Source: Enterobacteria phage vB_EcoM_IME281 | Reading direction: 5' to 3' (one strand) | Length of the DNA stretch: 64,000 nt | Sequence record: MH051913 | In this document: in pieces, positions 8,280 through 60,995 of the stretch | Layout: each line of letters starts with the position of its first letter | Position numbering within the stretch: the stretch's first letter is position 1 | The notes under the pieces: generated by a model | Told to the model about the DNA's origin: nothing | Seen by the model: the letters and a program-made list of their open reading frames with translations, nothing else | The model's database searches: none | Program-made: the position numbers and the translations under genes

Positions 8280-8308
8280 GTTTACACCTCCTTTAAACAT
8301 GATACTAT
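8280..8308 (+). promoter_or_regulatory. early promoter/stem-loop cassette
   Basis: GTTTAC, 17 nt, TACTAT; core GATACTATAGACCTATCAAAACAACAGAGTGA. Confidence 0.6.
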
Positions 8309-54614: not shown

Positions 54615-55787
54615 ATGTCTGATTTAAAATCCCGTTTGATTAAAGCTTCTACTTCTAAAATGACTGCCGACCTGACCAAATCTAAATTGTTTAATGGTCG
54701 TGACGAAGTTCCTACTCGTATTCCTATGCTTAATATTGCATTGGGTGGTGCGTTGAATGCAGGCTTACAATCAGGTTTGACAATCTTTGCTGCACCGTCT
54801 AAACACTTTAAAACGTTGTTTGGATTAACTATGGTTGCGGCATATATGAAGAAATATCCAGACGCAATTTGCTTGTTCTATGACTCTGAGTTCGGTGCTT
54901 CAGAATCTTATTTCCGTTCAATGGGTGTTGACCTGGAACGTGTAGTTCATACGCCAATCCAGTCAGTCGAACAACTGAAGGTTGACATGACCAACCAATT
55001 AGAAGAAATTACTCGTGGTGAAAAGGTTATTATCTTTATCGACTCCATCGGTAACACTGCTTCTAAGAAAGAAACCGAAGATGCTTTGAACGAGAAAGTT
55101 GTAGGTGATATGACTCGTGCTAAGTCTCTGAAATCTCTGTTCCGTATCGTAACACCTTATCTGACTATCAAGGATATTCCTTGCGTAGCAATTAACCATA
55201 CGGCTATGGAAATTGGTGGAATGTATCCTAAAGAGATTATGGGTGGCGGTACTGGTATTCTGTACTCTGCTTCTACCGTATTCTTTATCTCTAAACGTCA
55301 GGTTAAAGATGGTACCGAGCTCACTGGTTATGACTTCACCCTGAAGGCCGAAAAATCTCGTACTGTTAAAGAGAAATCAACGTTCCCAATTACTGTGAAC
55401 TTTGAAGGCGGTATCGACCCGTTTAGTGGTCTGCTCGAAATGGCTACTGATATCGGTTTTGTCGTGAAACCTAAAGCCGGTTGGTATAATCGTGCATTCC
55501 TTGACGAAACCACGGGTGAAATGGTTCAAGAAGAAAAAGCATGGCGTGCTAAAGCTACCGATTGCGTTGAGTTCTGGGGACCGCTGTTTAAACATGCTCC
55601 GTTCCGTGAAGCAATCGAGAATAAGTATAAGCTCGGTGCAATTAATTCTATTAAAGAAGTTGACGATGCAGTGAACGACCTTATTAACTCTCGTGTCTCT
55701 AAGAACGTTGCTGTTAAATTAGGTGGAAATACCCAAAGCGCCGCTGATATCGAAAACGATTTAGAAGAGATGGATTTAGATGACTGA
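54615..55787 (+). CDS. uvsX: UvsX recombinase (RecA-like)
   Basis: 390 aa; MSDLKSRLIKASTSK..; Walker A GPSKHFKT; near-collinear with recalled T4 UvsX. Confidence 0.95.
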   Translation: MSDLKSRLIKASTSKMTADLTKSKLFNGRDEVPTRIPMLNIALGGALNAGLQSGLTIFAAPSKHFKTLFGLTMVAAYMKKYPDAICLFYDSEFGASESYFRSMGVDLERVVHTPIQSVEQLKVDMTNQLEEITRGEKVIIFIDSIGNTASKKETEDALNEKVVGDMTRAKSLKSLFRIVTPYLTIKDIPCVAINHTAMEIGGMYPKEIMGGGTGILYSASTVFFISKRQVKDGTELTGYDFTLKAEKSRTVKEKSTFPITVNFEGGIDPFSGLLEMATDIGFVVKPKAGWYNRAFLDETTGEMVQEEKAWRAKATDCVEFWGPLFKHAPFREAIENKYKLGAINSIKEVDDAVNDLINSRVSKNVAVKLGGNTQSAADIENDLEEMDLDD

Positions 55788-56109
55788 TTTATCTGATTTA
55801 GATAATTTTGTTAAAGACACTGAAGAGGGTCCTAGTGACCCTCGTTATTATGAGAAATCGTTAGATATAATCCGTAAGTCAATGGGTTCGGTTAAGCAGG
55901 AAATTATGCTTACTTTACCCGATGGCACTGCTCACATCGTTTATGTGATGAATATTGTTATTGAGAAAGATGGAAAAGTGTCGGTTGATTTCGGAACGCC
56001 TTCCGAAGACCGAAAAGAAGAGCTAGCGCTTCATGTAGAAAAATGTGTTACAATGCAAATACAAGAAGAACTGGATAAAATTAAATCTAAGAGGTGGTGG
56101 AAGTGGTAG
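55780..56109 (+). CDS. 40: gp40-like protein (109 aa)
   Basis: Size and position between uvsX and 41 as T4 gene 40; positional. Confidence 0.5.
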   Translation: MTDLSDLDNFVKDTEEGPSDPRYYEKSLDIIRKSMGSVKQEIMLTLPDGTAHIVYVMNIVIEKDGKVSVDFGTPSEDRKEELALHVEKCVTMQIQEELDKIKSKRWWKW

Positions 56110-57533
56110 AAACTATTTTGGCTCAACTGCTAGGCAATAGTGATTATTTCACTAAGGTCTGGCCTTATATGAATGATTCTTATTTTGACCAGGGTCCGGC
56201 AAAGACCCTTTTCAAAGAAATCAAAAAACATGTCAATGAATATAATGCGGTGCCTTCTAAAAATGCTTTGAGTATTGCATTAGATAACAGCACCCTTTCA
56301 GAAGTTGAACATCAAGGAGCTAAAGAGCTTTTAAATTCTCTGAATGCAGGCCCTGAAGACCAAGAATGGTTGGTTAAAGAGACAGAGAAATATGTTCAGA
56401 AGGCAGCGATGTATAATGCCACTTCAAAAATTATTGAAATTCAAACTAATGCAGACCTTCCGGTTGAGCAACAAAATAGAAAACTCCCAGGTATTGGTGC
56501 TATTCCAGATATCATGCGTGATGCATTATCGATTTGTTTCGATTCTGAATTAGGCCACGACTGGATGGATGACTATGAAGAACGTTTTAAAAGTTATTCT
56601 GATAAAGCCTGTAAGGTTCCATTCCGTCTTAATATTCTGAACAAGATTACTAAGGGTGGCGCTGAGTTTGGTACTGAAAACGTATTGTTGGCAGGAACAA
56701 ACGTAGGTAAGTCTCTTGGACTGTGTTCATTGGCTGCTGATTACCTTCAATCAGGTTATGATGTTCTTTATATCTCCATGGAGATGGCAGAGGAAGTATG
56801 TGCTAAGCGTATCGATGCTAACCTTCTGGATGTATCACTGGATGATATCGATGATGGTCACGTCTCATGGCCTGAATATAAAGCTAAGATGGATAAGTGG
56901 CGTTCAACTGCTACTTTAGGTCGTTTAAAGATTAAACAGTACCCTACTGGTGGTGCTAATGCCGATACATTCCGTGCATTATTAAACGAATACAAGCTCA
57001 AACAAAACTTTGTCCCACAGGTCGTTATCGTCGACTACCTGGCCATCTGTGCATCTTCTCGTACGAAAGTTTTCTCTGAAAACAGTTACGGATTGATTAA
57101 GATGGTTGCTGAAGAACTACGTGGGCTTGCAGTAGAGAAGAAATTATTGCTGTGGACGGCAGCCCAGACTACTCGTGGTGCGAACGTTGCAGCCGAAATC
57201 GATATGGCCGATATTGCTGAATCTTTTGGTATTGCACATACTGCAGACTTCATGTTAGGTGTGGTCGAGACAGAAGAGTTTGCTCAGATGGGTATGCAAA
57301 TGGTTAAGCAGCTTAAATCTCGTTATGGTGATAAGAGCTACTACAACAAATTTAAGATTGGTGTTAAGAAAGGAAACCAGCGTTGGTATGAAGTTGAAGA
57401 CGATTCCAACCCAGGCCCTGTGAACACCGTTCGTGAGGCTACAGGTGAAATGAATCGCCAAGCTGAAGTCAATCGCCAGACACGTGTTAATAGAAGTGAT
57501 TTAGACGATTTAGCAGCATCTATCAAATTTTAA
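56103..57533 (+). CDS. 41: replicative DNA helicase gp41 (GTG start inferred)
   Basis: Walker A GTNVGKS, Walker B VVIVDYL; strong match to recalled T4 gp41; GTG 56103 gives MVETIL (T4 MVEIIL), 476 aa; track starts at GTG 56094. Confidence 0.9.
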   Translation: MVETILAQLLGNSDYFTKVWPYMNDSYFDQGPAKTLFKEIKKHVNEYNAVPSKNALSIALDNSTLSEVEHQGAKELLNSLNAGPEDQEWLVKETEKYVQKAAMYNATSKIIEIQTNADLPVEQQNRKLPGIGAIPDIMRDALSICFDSELGHDWMDDYEERFKSYSDKACKVPFRLNILNKITKGGAEFGTENVLLAGTNVGKSLGLCSLAADYLQSGYDVLYISMEMAEEVCAKRIDANLLDVSLDDIDDGHVSWPEYKAKMDKWRSTATLGRLKIKQYPTGGANADTFRALLNEYKLKQNFVPQVVIVDYLAICASSRTKVFSENSYGLIKMVAEELRGLAVEKKLLLWTAAQTTRGANVAAEIDMADIAESFGIAHTADFMLGVVETEEFAQMGMQMVKQLKSRYGDKSYYNKFKIGVKKGNQRWYEVEDDSNPGPVNTVREATGEMNRQAEVNRQTRVNRSDLDDLAASIKF

Positions 57534-57552
57534 GGAGCTTCGGCTCCTTTTT
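57534..57552 (+). terminator. rho-independent terminator
   Basis: GGAGC-TTCG-GCTCC plus T5. Confidence 0.65.
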
Positions 57553-57561
57553 GTTTTAAGG

Positions 57562-57590
57562 GTTTACATCTCCTATAGGCATGATACTAT
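57562..57590 (+). promoter_or_regulatory. early promoter/stem-loop cassette
   Basis: GTTTAC, 17 nt, TACTAT; core GCATGATACTATAGACCTATCAAC identical to 16912 copy. Confidence 0.65.
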
Positions 57591-57614
57591 AGACCTATCA
57601 ACTTGGAGAACAAA

Positions 57615-57932
57615 ATGAAAACTATCGATTGTAAAGCAGAACATAAAGTGTATTACCACGGAAGTTGTAGTGATGCTAATATTGGTAATATGCTTTGTCC
57701 TCCTGAGGAAACAGGAGTTCTGTCTGAAACTGGTCGTAAGAAAAACCTGAATCGTGTATTCTTTACTGAGGATATTGGTTTGGCTAAGATTTATGCTGGA
57801 CGAGCTGCTCGTTCAGTGGGAGGAGAACCTCGTCTTTATCGTGTAATTGCTCCGGTAGATGTGGTTTGTTTAAATGATACTAAAGGCGCTACGGTATATC
57901 ATGCCGAATGGGCCTTCTGTGAGGAAATCTAA
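57615..57932 (+). CDS. hypothetical protein (105 aa), cassette-driven insertion upstream of dmd
   Basis: ATG after GGAGAACAAA in cassette leader (track used TTG 57603); contains HGS, AKIYAG and YHAEW motifs. Confidence 0.5.
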   Translation: MKTIDCKAEHKVYYHGSCSDANIGNMLCPPEETGVLSETGRKKNLNRVFFTEDIGLAKIYAGRAARSVGGEPRLYRVIAPVDVVCLNDTKGATVYHAEWAFCEEI

Positions 57933-58136
57933 ATGTTTAAATTAGAGATCGTAGTGTTTATTGGTTGGTTTGAAAATGGTAATATGTTTACCAAAGAAAC
58001 TGCGCTGGATGTTAGTGACCAAAAAATGATTGAATGGGTTACAGTGCAGTATGCAGAAGTGAATAATGCACTGGTGAAAGCCTTTGTTAATGACAATAAA
58101 GTTTTTGAATATGATGCCCGCATTGAGGAAATCTAA
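57933..58136 (+). CDS. dmd: Dmd antitoxin (inhibitor of host RnlA/LsoA RNase toxins)
   Basis: 67 aa; VVFIGWFENGNMFTKE..QYAEVNNALVKAFVNDNKV matches recalled T4 Dmd; between 41 and 61. Confidence 0.8.
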   Translation: MFKLEIVVFIGWFENGNMFTKETALDVSDQKMIEWVTVQYAEVNNALVKAFVNDNKVFEYDARIEEI

Positions 58137-58277
58137 ATGGAAGAAGTAGAATGTGTAGTGTGCGGCTGTTCAGTTTGTGAAGACGAAGCCGTTTTTGACG
58201 CGTATGATAATGCGACTTGTTTAGACTGTGACAGTGAATTCGAAGAAATTGCTCATAAACATGAAGACGAGGAATAA
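58137..58277 (+). CDS. zinc-ribbon micro-protein (46 aa)
   Basis: Not in ORF track; CVVCGCSVC...CLDC four-Cys motif; fills gap exactly between neighbours. Confidence 0.45.
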   Translation: MEEVECVVCGCSVCEDEAVFDAYDNATCLDCDSEFEEIAHKHEDEE

Positions 58278-58574
58278 ATGAATATTCAAATTATGAAGCC
58301 TGTTAAAAGTGGCTTTTGGGACCGGTCTTTCGGTAAGCATAAGATTTATGCAGATCGTATTAACAGTCGCTGGGAACTTGTCCTTTCTCAGGAAACTAAA
58401 GGCGAAATGGATTTTGTAGAGTTCTACGAATTCGATGTTCGTCCTACTAAGCGCCAGATTCGTCAGTGCAAAAAAGCTTTTCGTGCTTATGTTGGTGGTG
58501 AGGTTCTCCGTCGTCAACGTCGTCTGATAATGGAATCACAGTTAGTAACTTTAGATTACGCTAAAGTAAAATAA
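58278..58574 (+). CDS. hypothetical basic protein with RPTKRQ motif (98 aa)
   Basis: ORF track; VRPTKRQIRQCKKAFRAYV shared with 59363 product. Confidence 0.45.
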   Translation: MNIQIMKPVKSGFWDRSFGKHKIYADRINSRWELVLSQETKGEMDFVEFYEFDVRPTKRQIRQCKKAFRAYVGGEVLRRQRRLIMESQLVTLDYAKVK

Positions 58575-58576
58575 GT

Positions 58577-58606
58577 GTTTACAACGGTCTATGGTAGTGA
58601 TACTAT
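58577..58606 (+). promoter_or_regulatory. early promoter/stem-loop cassette
   Basis: GTTTAC, 18 nt, TACTAT; core GTGATACTATAGACCTATCAACTAATGAGGAG. Confidence 0.6.
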
Positions 58607-58634
58607 AGACCTATCAACTAATGAGGAGTTAAAA

Positions 58635-58928
58635 ATGAAAAAGTTATTAATCGCAGCAATCCTTACAGTAGCATCATGTGGCACAGCTCCAGTTACAGCT
58701 GGGTTGGATAAAGACCTTTGTGAATGGTCTATGACTGCAGACCAAGAATCAGTTGAACATCAGATTTATGCTGATATCATGAACATCACTAAACGTGACC
58801 GTCCTGATATGGTTAAAGAAGTATCCGACCAATTGGCTTCTAGCGGTGTTATGCAGTATAACTATGTTCTGTACTGTGATGCTAATTTCGATAACAAAAA
58901 TATCGTTAAAGAGGTGACAGGTGAATAA
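58635..58928 (+). CDS. putative periplasmic lipoprotein (97 aa)
   Basis: M21 of track ORF; signal peptide with lipobox-like VASC; size and position similar to T4 sp (61.3), positional only. Confidence 0.4.
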   Translation: MKKLLIAAILTVASCGTAPVTAGLDKDLCEWSMTADQESVEHQIYADIMNITKRDRPDMVKEVSDQLASSGVMQYNYVLYCDANFDNKNIVKEVTGE

Positions 58929-59362: not shown

Positions 59363-59584
59363 ATGTTTGTTTTAACTCAATTCTCTAAAGCGGTATATGG
59401 TTACTCTTGTCAGTGGGAAGTCTTTATTGATTCTCCTTCACCTAAGTATGGTGTTTTTGGACGAGTAACTACTCAAGCTTATGTTGCACGGCCAACTAAG
59501 CGCCAGCTTCGTAAACTTAAAAAGGCCCATCGTCAACTGATTAAAAGAAGGGAACAATATGAGTGCAATGTGTACGGGCTCTAA
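59363..59584 (+). CDS. hypothetical basic protein with RPTKRQ motif (73 aa)
   Basis: ORF track; ARPTKRQLRKLKKAHRQLI paralogous to 58278 product. Confidence 0.45.
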   Translation: MFVLTQFSKAVYGYSCQWEVFIDSPSPKYGVFGRVTTQAYVARPTKRQLRKLKKAHRQLIKRREQYECNVYGL

Positions 59585-59966: not shown

Positions 59967-60995
59967 ATGTCATATGTCGATAGAGAATTTGCTGTACGTG
60001 CCTTGAATTACCAACCTAAATTCAGACAAGTAACTGGTAGTGATTTTAAATTAAATTGTCGTTGTCGTGTATGCGGTGACTCCCAAAAGGATGAGAACAA
60101 AGCTCGTTTTTGGGCCTATCCGGCCAATGACGGTTCCATTATGTTGCATTGTTTTAACTGCGACTATTCAGCAGGAATTAAGAAGTACCTATATGAATAT
60201 GAGCCTGATTTATATCGCGAATATATTCTTGAGAAACATAAAGAGCAATCGTTCGGGAGACAAGCTGCACCTAAGGTGGAGATATCTGAAAAAATTAAAG
60301 CTAAGATGCCTGTCATCGAAAAGCTTAATTTCTGCGAACGATTAGATAGAATGCCGAAGGACCATCCTATTATCAAATATGTGACGCTGCGTTGCATTCC
60401 TGAAAATAAATGGAATCGACTATGGTTTACTAAAGAATGGCCTGCATTGGTTAACTCAGTTAATCCAGGGACCTATTCTAAAGAAATGCCTGAGCCTCGT
60501 TTGGTTATTCCTATTTTCAATAAGGATAAACAAATAGAAAGTTTCCAGGGTCGAGCTTTACGTAAAGATGCTCCACAAAAATATATTACAATAAAAGCTC
60601 ATGACCAAGCTACAAAAATATATGGAATGGATACGGTTGATGAACGTCAATTGGTATGGGTTATGGAAGGACCGATTGATTCTTTATTTGTCCCTAATGC
60701 CATAGCAATTACTGGCGGGTCTTTGGACTTGGCTATGGTTCCATGTAAAGAAACTCGTGCTTGGGTAATGGACAATGAACCCCGTCATCCTGACACAATT
60801 AAGCGTATGCAACGATTAGTTGATGCCGGCGAAAGGGTCCTATTCTGGGACAAGGCTCCATGGCCTTCTAAAGATATAAATGATATGGTTATGAAAGATA
60901 AAGCTGATATAAATGATATATTGGCGTATATGAAAGCTAATATAGCCCAAGGTCTAATGGCAAAAATGAGGCTTTCAAAATATTCTAAAATTTAG
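59967..60995 (+). CDS. 61: DNA primase gp61
   Basis: 342 aa (same as T4 gp61); N-terminal zinc ribbon CRCRVCGDS..CFNCDY; position after 41. Confidence 0.85.
   Translation: MSYVDREFAVRALNYQPKFRQVTGSDFKLNCRCRVCGDSQKDENKARFWAYPANDGSIMLHCFNCDYSAGIKKYLYEYEPDLYREYILEKHKEQSFGRQAAPKVEISEKIKAKMPVIEKLNFCERLDRMPKDHPIIKYVTLRCIPENKWNRLWFTKEWPALVNSVNPGTYSKEMPEPRLVIPIFNKDKQIESFQGRALRKDAPQKYITIKAHDQATKIYGMDTVDERQLVWVMEGPIDSLFVPNAIAITGGSLDLAMVPCKETRAWVMDNEPRHPDTIKRMQRLVDAGERVLFWDKAPWPSKDINDMVMKDKADINDILAYMKANIAQGLMAKMRLSKYSKI

Follow-up and report, generated by a model that had tools for sequence, protein, structure and literature searches.

We analyzed a 64,000-nucleotide stretch of DNA from Enterobacteria phage vB_EcoM_IME281 (sequence record MH051913; hereafter the window), in which a 105-residue open reading frame (ORF) at 57615-57932 lies between the helicase gene 41 and dmd, the gene for an antitoxin-like inhibitor of RnlA/LsoA. 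Structure modeling indicates that the ORF product is a stand-alone, minimal ADP-ribosyltransferase (ART) fold of about 95 core residues that is related to Arr. From the sequence and the model, we consider it somewhat probable (roughly 55%) that this protein is an immediate-early effector that uses NAD+ to act on a host or defence target.

The structure model was built from an alignment of 35 sequences. It has a mean pLDDT of 87.7 and runs in the order beta-1 (residues 13-18), beta-2 (48-51), a helix (54-68) and beta-3 to beta-6. The predicted fold contains the split beta-sheet core of the ART superfamily, superimposable on solved ARTs. Three Arr structures ranked at the top of a Foldseek search (2hw2: E = 3e-3, probability 1.0, TMq 0.62), and nothing else was credible. 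The window protein scored 17.5 bits against Pfam Arr-ms (PF12120), which is below the cut-off of 25 and covers profile positions 1-59 of 99, and the same domain embedded in larger fusion proteins passed this cut-off with 25.5-31.5 bits. A single-sequence search of the PDB returned only Arr (E = 0.7). The sequence-level matches are weak, and the fold assignment therefore relies on structure comparison together with sub-threshold and transitive Pfam matches. A preliminary description of this DNA, made from its letters alone, had guessed at an ART from the succession of the strings HGS, AKIYAG and YHAEW, which occupy residues 15-17, 57-62 and 95-99. That guess is borne out by the Foldseek match to Arr, the confidence of the model and the Arr-ms matches of homologous domains.

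We then asked which residues are conserved, using an alignment of 151 representatives (50% identity clusters) from an exhaustive profile search with 243 clusters at E <= 0.001. The invariant or near-invariant positions are Y14, H15, G16, [TS]17, P29, P30, T33, E38, R41, K43, V48, F49, T51, A57, Y60, A61, G69, G70, P72, G91, V94 and A100. H15 and G16 never vary, and position 17 holds Ser or Thr in all 144 representatives scored there (144/144), so the H-G-[ST] first motif is present throughout. The invariant elements H15-G16-[ST]17, F49-x-T51 and Y60-A61 form what we infer to be a putative NAD+ site. Y60 lies eleven residues past F49, and we take it to be the second aromatic of the Y-x10-Y pair, as named from diphtheria toxin and PARP.

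The preliminary description went further and likened the three strings to the triad of the H-Y-E class of ARTs. H15-G16-S17 and Y60 are indeed invariant, but Y60 is not the beta-2 tyrosine, whose place is taken by F49, and the proposed glutamate, E98, is variable. At the beta-2 position, H-Y-E enzymes have Tyr, as does Arr (Y49), and Tpt1 has His.

Several results weigh against an active, NAD+-using effector. Position 49 is Phe in 141 of 150 representatives and Tyr in the remaining 9, so the tyrosine expected of an H-Y-E enzyme is generally missing; the E98 position is occupied mainly by Pro (45), Asp (31) or Ser (11) among 109 representatives; and the loop N87-D88-T89, the counterpart of Arr D84, is variable, with Asp at position 88 in 35/120. 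No conserved acidic residue was found among the representatives in the C-terminal half of the protein, after E38, where T93/V94 begin beta-5. With no conserved catalytic acid at either the Arr D84 or the H-Y-E Glu position, activity of the product is not assured. The family profile found no match among PDB sequences, and hhalign gave weak alignments to Arr-ms (residues 14-109, E = 0.007) and to the C-lobe of CthTpt1 (E = 0.03). Searchable literature yielded no experimental work on the protein, the target and acceptor chemistry are pure inference, and an anti-defence gene neighborhood in a hyperplastic region is weak evidence of function. As judged from the sequence, the protein is best described as an Arr-like minimal ART fold that is neither an Arr nor a strict H-Y-E enzyme.

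An ART fold that has lost its catalytic acid could instead be a non-catalytic binder that sequesters NAD+ or NAD-derived immune signals, like the Tad-type sponges. The putative ligand-pocket residues are invariant while the canonical position has no conserved Asp or Glu, and a very small protein behind an early-type promoter would suit such a function. The invariant E38, R41 and K43, however, could serve catalysis or substrate binding, and the domain is found among enzymes in polyvalent phage proteins. It is also general knowledge that ARTs lacking the Glu remain active, as in the H-H-h clade of Tpt1 and the Glu-less PARPs. We therefore think a sponge unlikely. A variant of the effector reading is conceivable, if still rather unlikely, in which the protein would be the founding stand-alone form of a minimal Glu-less ART module, present in polyvalent injected proteins too, that employs its invariant E38/R41/K43 loop to ADP-ribosylate a non-protein acceptor and has a broad immediate-early counter-defence function across the Straboviridae. 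The acceptors that come into question for such a module are speculative: a nucleic-acid end, a nucleotide-derived immune signal or a small molecule.

Arr (PF12120; PDB 2HW2, 9IAF) is the top match by both sequence and Foldseek, and the two proteins share a minimal ART core with HG[ST] on beta-1, an aromatic-x-T on beta-2 and an E-x-G-R loop. A genuine Arr would ADP-ribosylate rifamycin-type inhibitors and so shield the host RNA polymerase that the phage needs; the E-x-G-R loop is common to both families in the profile alignment, and a role of this kind has been discussed for actinophage Arr genes (Iyer et al. 2022; PMC9503650). All Arrs have D84 within DPN[VL] (100% conservation), and rifampin is contacted by residues of their C-terminal part (PMC6092378). 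The phage protein has Phe in place of Arr Y49, its family does not conserve the catalytic D84 of the DPN motif, and it ends right past the last core strand at 105 residues, as against about 143 in Arr, and thus lacks the C-terminal part (residues about 110-143) that completes the rifampin site. It scores 16.1 bits against the NCBIfam rifampin_ARR model (NF033144; cut-off 130), a cut-off that the fusion-borne domains also miss by far, and its Pfam match stops at profile position 59. Unlike Arr, it is phage-encoded, predicted to be expressed early and phage-restricted. A rifamycin-modifying enzyme is for these reasons highly unlikely, and we retain the reading of an NAD+-using effector with a host or defence target.

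The ORF is a real gene under strong purifying selection: differences from its homologues concentrate at third codon positions (for the three positions, 1/1/9 where nucleotide identity is 96% and 22/22/57 where it is 68%). It corresponds over its full length to phrog_2110 (E = 3e-60). A tblastn search found it in 608 phage records, from phages of Escherichia (216), Klebsiella (116), Acinetobacter (68), Aeromonas (62), Enterobacter, Cronobacter, Vibrio and others, with cross-host identities of 64-75% (65-75% among the copies of coliphages, Acinetobacter phages and Aeromonas phages), and a large protein database holds 120 clusters with homologues. By comparison, 185,579 bacterial and archaeal species genomes contain only three loci, two on phage-sized contigs of 167-178 kb and one on a 3-kb fragment; the family is phage-restricted. 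PADLOC defence-system models gave no match to the ART domain, their only matches being to the Toprim part of one fusion. At 40.9%, the G+C content of the gene equals that of genes 41 and uvsX. Recent foreign acquisition was considered and ruled out by this core-like G+C content and by the wide distribution of the gene in the same slot.

The ORF had been presented as novel, a description that does not hold. In addition to the 608 phage genomes that carry the gene, some depositors already annotate it as "putative ADP-ribosyl transferase", and Iyer et al. 2022 (PMC9503650) have published its pairing with Dmd. In JS98 the gene is named orf34 and noted as "similar to RB69 orf040c hypothetical protein". 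Public records and one survey paper thus already contain the gene, its family and the ART prediction, and our result is correspondingly modest and ordinary in kind.

The phage is T4-type and of the Dhakavirus (JS98/JS10) kind, and 900 bases at the locus are 94-96% identical to NC-G, EcWhh-1, JS10 and JS98. The gene order is uvsX, 40, 41, the 105-residue ORF, dmd, small ORFs and the primase gene 61. The terminator, early promoter, ORF, dmd and protein strings of the preliminary description were all found where it had placed them. The features of the locus are as follows.

54615-55787: uvsX.
56094-57533: gene 41, helicase, with a DnaB_C match.
57532-57559, plus strand: intrinsic terminator of gene 41, made up of the hairpin AAGGAGC-UUCG-GCUCCUU and the TTTGTTTT that comes after it.
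57562-57592, plus strand: T4-type early (sigma-70) promoter with GTTTACA and the extended -10 element TGaTACTAT.
57605-57608, plus strand: Shine-Dalgarno sequence GGAG, 6 nt before the ATG at 57615, as read from the sequence.
57615-57932, plus strand: 105-residue ORF for the predicted Arr-like mini ART fold, phrog_2110, homologue of JS98 orf34 and RB69 orf040c.
57920-57935, plus strand: 16-nt direct repeat TGAGGAAATCTAAATG, left copy, where the ART gene meets dmd.
57933-58136, plus strand: dmd, antitoxin-like RnlA/LsoA inhibitor of 67 residues, Pfam Dmd.
58124-58139, plus strand: 16-nt direct repeat, right copy, where dmd meets the 46-residue ORF.
58137-58277, plus strand: 46-residue Cys-rich (zinc-ribbon-like) ORF, phrog_13952.
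58278-58574, plus strand: homologue of TifA (gp61.4), DUF7279, the last gene before the next early promoter.
58578-58606: early promoter match TTTACA-17-TACTAT, preceding the spackle (sp) homologue.
59363-59584: second TifA paralogue.
59967-60995: primase gene 61.

The terminator hairpin at 57532-57549 overlaps the gene 41 stop codon (57533). It has seven pairs, four of them GC, a loop of four and a T run after it, and folds with -11.6 kcal/mol (z = -2.1 against shuffles). The promoter that follows has GTTTACA at 57562-57568 as its -35 element and TACTAT at 57585-57590, separated by a 16-nt spacer in which TG occupies 57582-57583. Composite terminator/promoter motifs termed PeSL (promoter-early stem-loop) mark the borders of variable genes in T4-type phages (Comeau, Arbiol, Krisch; PMC4122927), and the hairpin and early promoter, which stand together at 57532-57592 upstream of the ART gene, match this motif. 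In related phages with the gene 41 context, the hairpin stem varies with compensatory changes and retains its UUCG loop, and the promoter is conserved before the ART gene. Most lineages of the family have their own sigma-70 or early-type promoter directly 5' of the ART gene. A 31-nt consensus built on the ART promoter occurred six times in the window and never in 100 shuffles; the promoter is therefore one copy of a repeated early-promoter unit of the phage. On the plus strand, the consensus GTTTACWTCTCCT...TGnTAYTATAG lies at 8280, 16912, 19200, 23323, 27806 and 57562. All six copies are units of the PeSL type and may point to further variable early cassettes.

A motif search of the window revealed no further promoter or terminator from the ART gene through dmd and the 46-residue ORF to 58278-58574, and the stop and start codons abut, with a gap of 0 nt between the ART stop codon and the dmd ATG. 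By its sequence signals, the ART gene is predicted to be the first gene of an immediate-early transcription unit that starts at the PeSL after gene 41. The 58278-58574 product is 38% identical to T4 gp61.4 (E = 6e-17), which is TifA, an inhibitor of the ToxN RNase (PMC10853763). Because the uninterrupted run includes both dmd and this TifA homologue, the ART gene stands first in an early operon for inhibitors of host toxin RNases.

Based on this setting, we propose that a minimal ART-fold protein would be expressed immediate-early from the PeSL promoter, bind NAD+ through H15-G16-[ST]17, F49-x-T51 and Y60-A61, and, shortly after the DNA has entered, transfer ADP-ribose to a target that belongs to the host or is related to defence. 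Its role would be that of a host-takeover or counter-defence effector rather than of a toxin against the phage itself. An anti-defence role is plausible from the sequence context, namely the early promoter, the dmd and tifA homologues as neighbors and the polyvalent fusions. More speculatively, the acceptor may be a nucleic acid or small molecule instead of a protein side chain. We consider a non-protein acceptor somewhat likelier because the nearest relatives are Arr and Tpt1 and because the basic loop E38-x-G-R41-K-K43-N44 is invariant; Arr modifies a hydroxyl on a small molecule, and Tpt1 a phosphate on RNA.

Other phage-encoded ARTs offer points of comparison. Alt, ModA and ModB of T4 are likewise ARTs of a T4-type phage that serve host takeover and are expressed early or injected, but they belong to the R-S-E clade, are far larger, modify (or RNAylate) proteins and have no sequence homology to the protein described here. 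AcrF11 is also a small phage-encoded ART, which acts as an anti-CRISPR; its target, Csy1, and its host context differ, and the comparison does not extend to sequence. If active, the 105-residue protein would be among the smallest ARTs known and, next to Alt, ModA and ModB, would represent a fourth kind of ADP-ribosylating function among T4-type phages. Its gene is conserved from coliphages to phages of Acinetobacter, Aeromonas and Vibrio, the module is reused in giant polyvalent proteins, and its position as the first gene of an operon with Dmd and TifA, which are proven toxin-RNase inhibitors, makes it a reasonable candidate for counter-defence screens.

The company of RNase-toxin inhibitors also raises the possibility of Tpt1-like RNA end processing or repair, in which ADP-ribose would remove or cap RNA phosphates left by host RNase-toxin cleavage. 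The protein resembles Tpt1/KptA in its YHGT motif and in a third position without a catalytic Glu. In addition, the ART gene of Klebsiella, RB43, Aeromonas and also Enterobacter phages lies at another site, after a conserved ORF of about 250-300 residues, and a gene for an Rnl2-type RNA ligase follows about 1.4 kb downstream; one jumbo-phage fusion stands beside a Thg1-like gene, and one polyvalent protein has a weakly KptA-like segment. The resemblance is limited to YHGT, however, which is all that hhalign aligns with the CthTpt1 C-lobe. The phage protein is a single 105-residue domain and lacks the N-terminal RNA-binding lobe, which in Tpt1 bears three of the four catalytic R-H-R-R residues, as well as the R-H-R-R tetrad itself. 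The RNA-ligase neighborhood is not an operon and is missing from the window. RNA end repair is on balance very unlikely. R41 was considered as an equivalent of the catalytic Arg of Tpt1 and dropped, since loop lengths are unequal and nothing aligns. The effector reading remains the one we prefer.

The close association with dmd has been interpreted differently. Iyer, Burroughs, Anantharaman and Aravind (Viruses 14:1977, 2022; PMC9503650) described an enterophage "p0068-like" ART which, together with Dmd, was put forward as a putative toxin-antitoxin system; they assigned the p0068 family to the HY-[EDQ] clade and took its members for the toxin. In their description, the ART is immediately 5' of Dmd in T4-like phages of Escherichia, Shigella and Salmonella, as in the window, and by this gene arrangement the p0068-like family is almost certainly the one examined here, although the name "p0068" did not appear in the other papers searched. 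Under this proposal, the ART would be a type II toxin, perhaps one directed at RNA, and its neighbor Dmd the dedicated antitoxin. The two genes adjoin with a 0-nt gap on a predicted common transcript, the arrangement recurs in phages of the three host genera, Dmd is a known antitoxin mimic, and the proposal is published.

To see how consistent the pairing is, we searched 67 IMG/VR loci encoding an ART homologue for Dmd within 4 kb, using an iterated (jackhmmer) profile. Dmd adjoined the ART gene in nine loci and was found nowhere within 4 kb in the other 58. The gene right after the ART gene was Dmd, the 46-residue Cys-rich ORF, a lipoprotein-like ORF, a small membrane protein or one of several unrelated ORFs; a conserved downstream partner as possible antitoxin was dropped for this variability. 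Conversely, Dmd occurs in 796 phage records, almost all from phages of Escherichia, Shigella, Yersinia and Salmonella among the name groups listed, whereas about half of the ART records come from phages of Klebsiella, Acinetobacter, Aeromonas and Enterobacter. The Klebsiella (116), Acinetobacter (68) and Aeromonas (62) groups are absent from the ten Dmd groups listed, beyond which lie six minor ones, and the ART is missing from the groups that supply most Dmd records; T4 and its close relatives, for instance, carry Dmd but no ART gene at this locus. The dmd gene is also a repeat-flanked, allele-swapping cassette, and in relatives the ART gene connects straight to the gene that follows. ART and Dmd therefore do not co-occur or adjoin consistently, and with no conserved partner an obligate toxin-antitoxin pair is unlikely. 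The conservation pattern and the co-occurrence data fit neither the conserved E/D/Q nor the obligate Dmd pairing of the p0068 description. We accordingly hold it quite unlikely that the ART is a toxin with Dmd as its antitoxin, and continue to favor an effector directed at the host or its defences.

The window Dmd matches Pfam PF17587 with 72 bits (gathering cut-off 27) and is 58% identical to T4 Dmd, with a C-terminal tail, IEEI, absent from the T4 protein, which ends earlier in CRG. According to the preliminary description, T4 has dmd directly after gene 41, and a terminator, an early promoter and the ORF have been inserted in front of it here. T4 dmd does follow gene 41 at a distance of 58 bp, but that spacer already contains an early promoter (GTTTACA...TATAGT). 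The addition relative to T4 is therefore the ORF and the hairpin, and not the promoter. The ART gene is found upstream of dmd in relatives too.

That the ORF was the inserted piece is itself doubtful. An exact 16-nt direct repeat bounds dmd, not the ART gene, and its 15-mer occurs at these two sites only in 64 kb (0.02 expected). The repeat contains a Shine-Dalgarno sequence, EEI codons, a TAA and an ATG, and for this reason the ART protein and the window Dmd both end in EEI. We compared this repeat in further loci (L002-L006, L009, L015, L017 and L018). Six related loci have the same repeat around dmd, though two different dmd alleles fill the slot; in three others, the ART gene is joined via a single repeat copy straight to the 46-residue ORF, like the right-hand junction in the window. 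The simplest reading of these sequences is that ART followed by the 46-residue ORF would be the older order and that dmd entered by recombination at the microhomology, or can loop out there, so that the direction of insertion was probably the reverse of the one proposed. Allele swapping between repeats suggests cassette exchange by junction microhomology. What we add to the existing records is thus that the published ART-Dmd toxin-antitoxin reading misfits the gene distribution, that the proposed triad fails, and that the mobile piece appears to be dmd rather than the ART gene.

Some Mosigvirus-like phages have a second Dmd-related ORF of 110-113 residues directly after dmd (L009 4532-4873; L013 4492-4824; jackhmmer E about 1e-14), and phage fDHCT2 is annotated with dmd_1 and dmd_2. 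The T4 spacer between 41 and dmd (L069 3555-3612, minus strand) contains a 9-bp inverted repeat, GACAAGACT...AGTCTTGTC, across the -10 element of the dmd promoter.

The domain is also embedded in polyvalent phage proteins of 500-3900 residues, beside ART-PolyVal, NUDIX, Toprim, GNAT and CHAP domains. Examples include Toprim + ART (618 residues), GNAT + Toprim + ART (1046 residues), ART-PolyVal + mini-ART + NUDIX (1955 residues) and proteins of 2900-3900 residues with CHAP or ART-PolyVal. In the giant polyvalent proteins, the mini-ART repeatedly lies within 100-200 residues of a second, different ART (Pfam ART-PolyVal); the proteins concerned are P0134, P0136, P0149, P0162, L061 and L064. L064 has three YH[GA]T-type segments, of which one weakly resembles KptA. 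Polyvalent proteins are said to have been regarded by Iyer and colleagues in 2017 as effectors delivered with DNA. On a 320-kb jumbo-phage contig, a gene of the Thg1 family (tRNA-His guanylyltransferase; Pfam 1.7e-27) at L060 4345-5094 directly follows a 288-residue ART fusion.

Among the neighbors in the window, the acidic 46-residue ORF at 58137-58277, with its CxxC...CxxC pattern, is conserved, is left unannotated in JS98, and is the most frequent head-to-tail junction partner of the ART gene where dmd is absent. The two TifA paralogues are 38% (58278-58574) and 35% (59363-59584) identical to T4 gp61.4; RPTKRQ[IL]R occurs in both, and the first matches Pfam DUF7279. In the region 58578-58928, which we take to encode spackle from the JS98 annotation and the T4 Sp sequence, the likely start is 58635, with a lipoprotein-type signal (MKKLL), and not the GTG at 58575. 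At the alternative site of the ART gene, the ORF directly 5' of it belongs to one cluster, c13 (L020 3067-3972; also L019-L028, L039, L041, L044, L052 and L056). This ORF had no Pfam or NCBIfam match, and its strings KYLINSVFG and VDEIAY recall motifs B and C of family-B polymerases.

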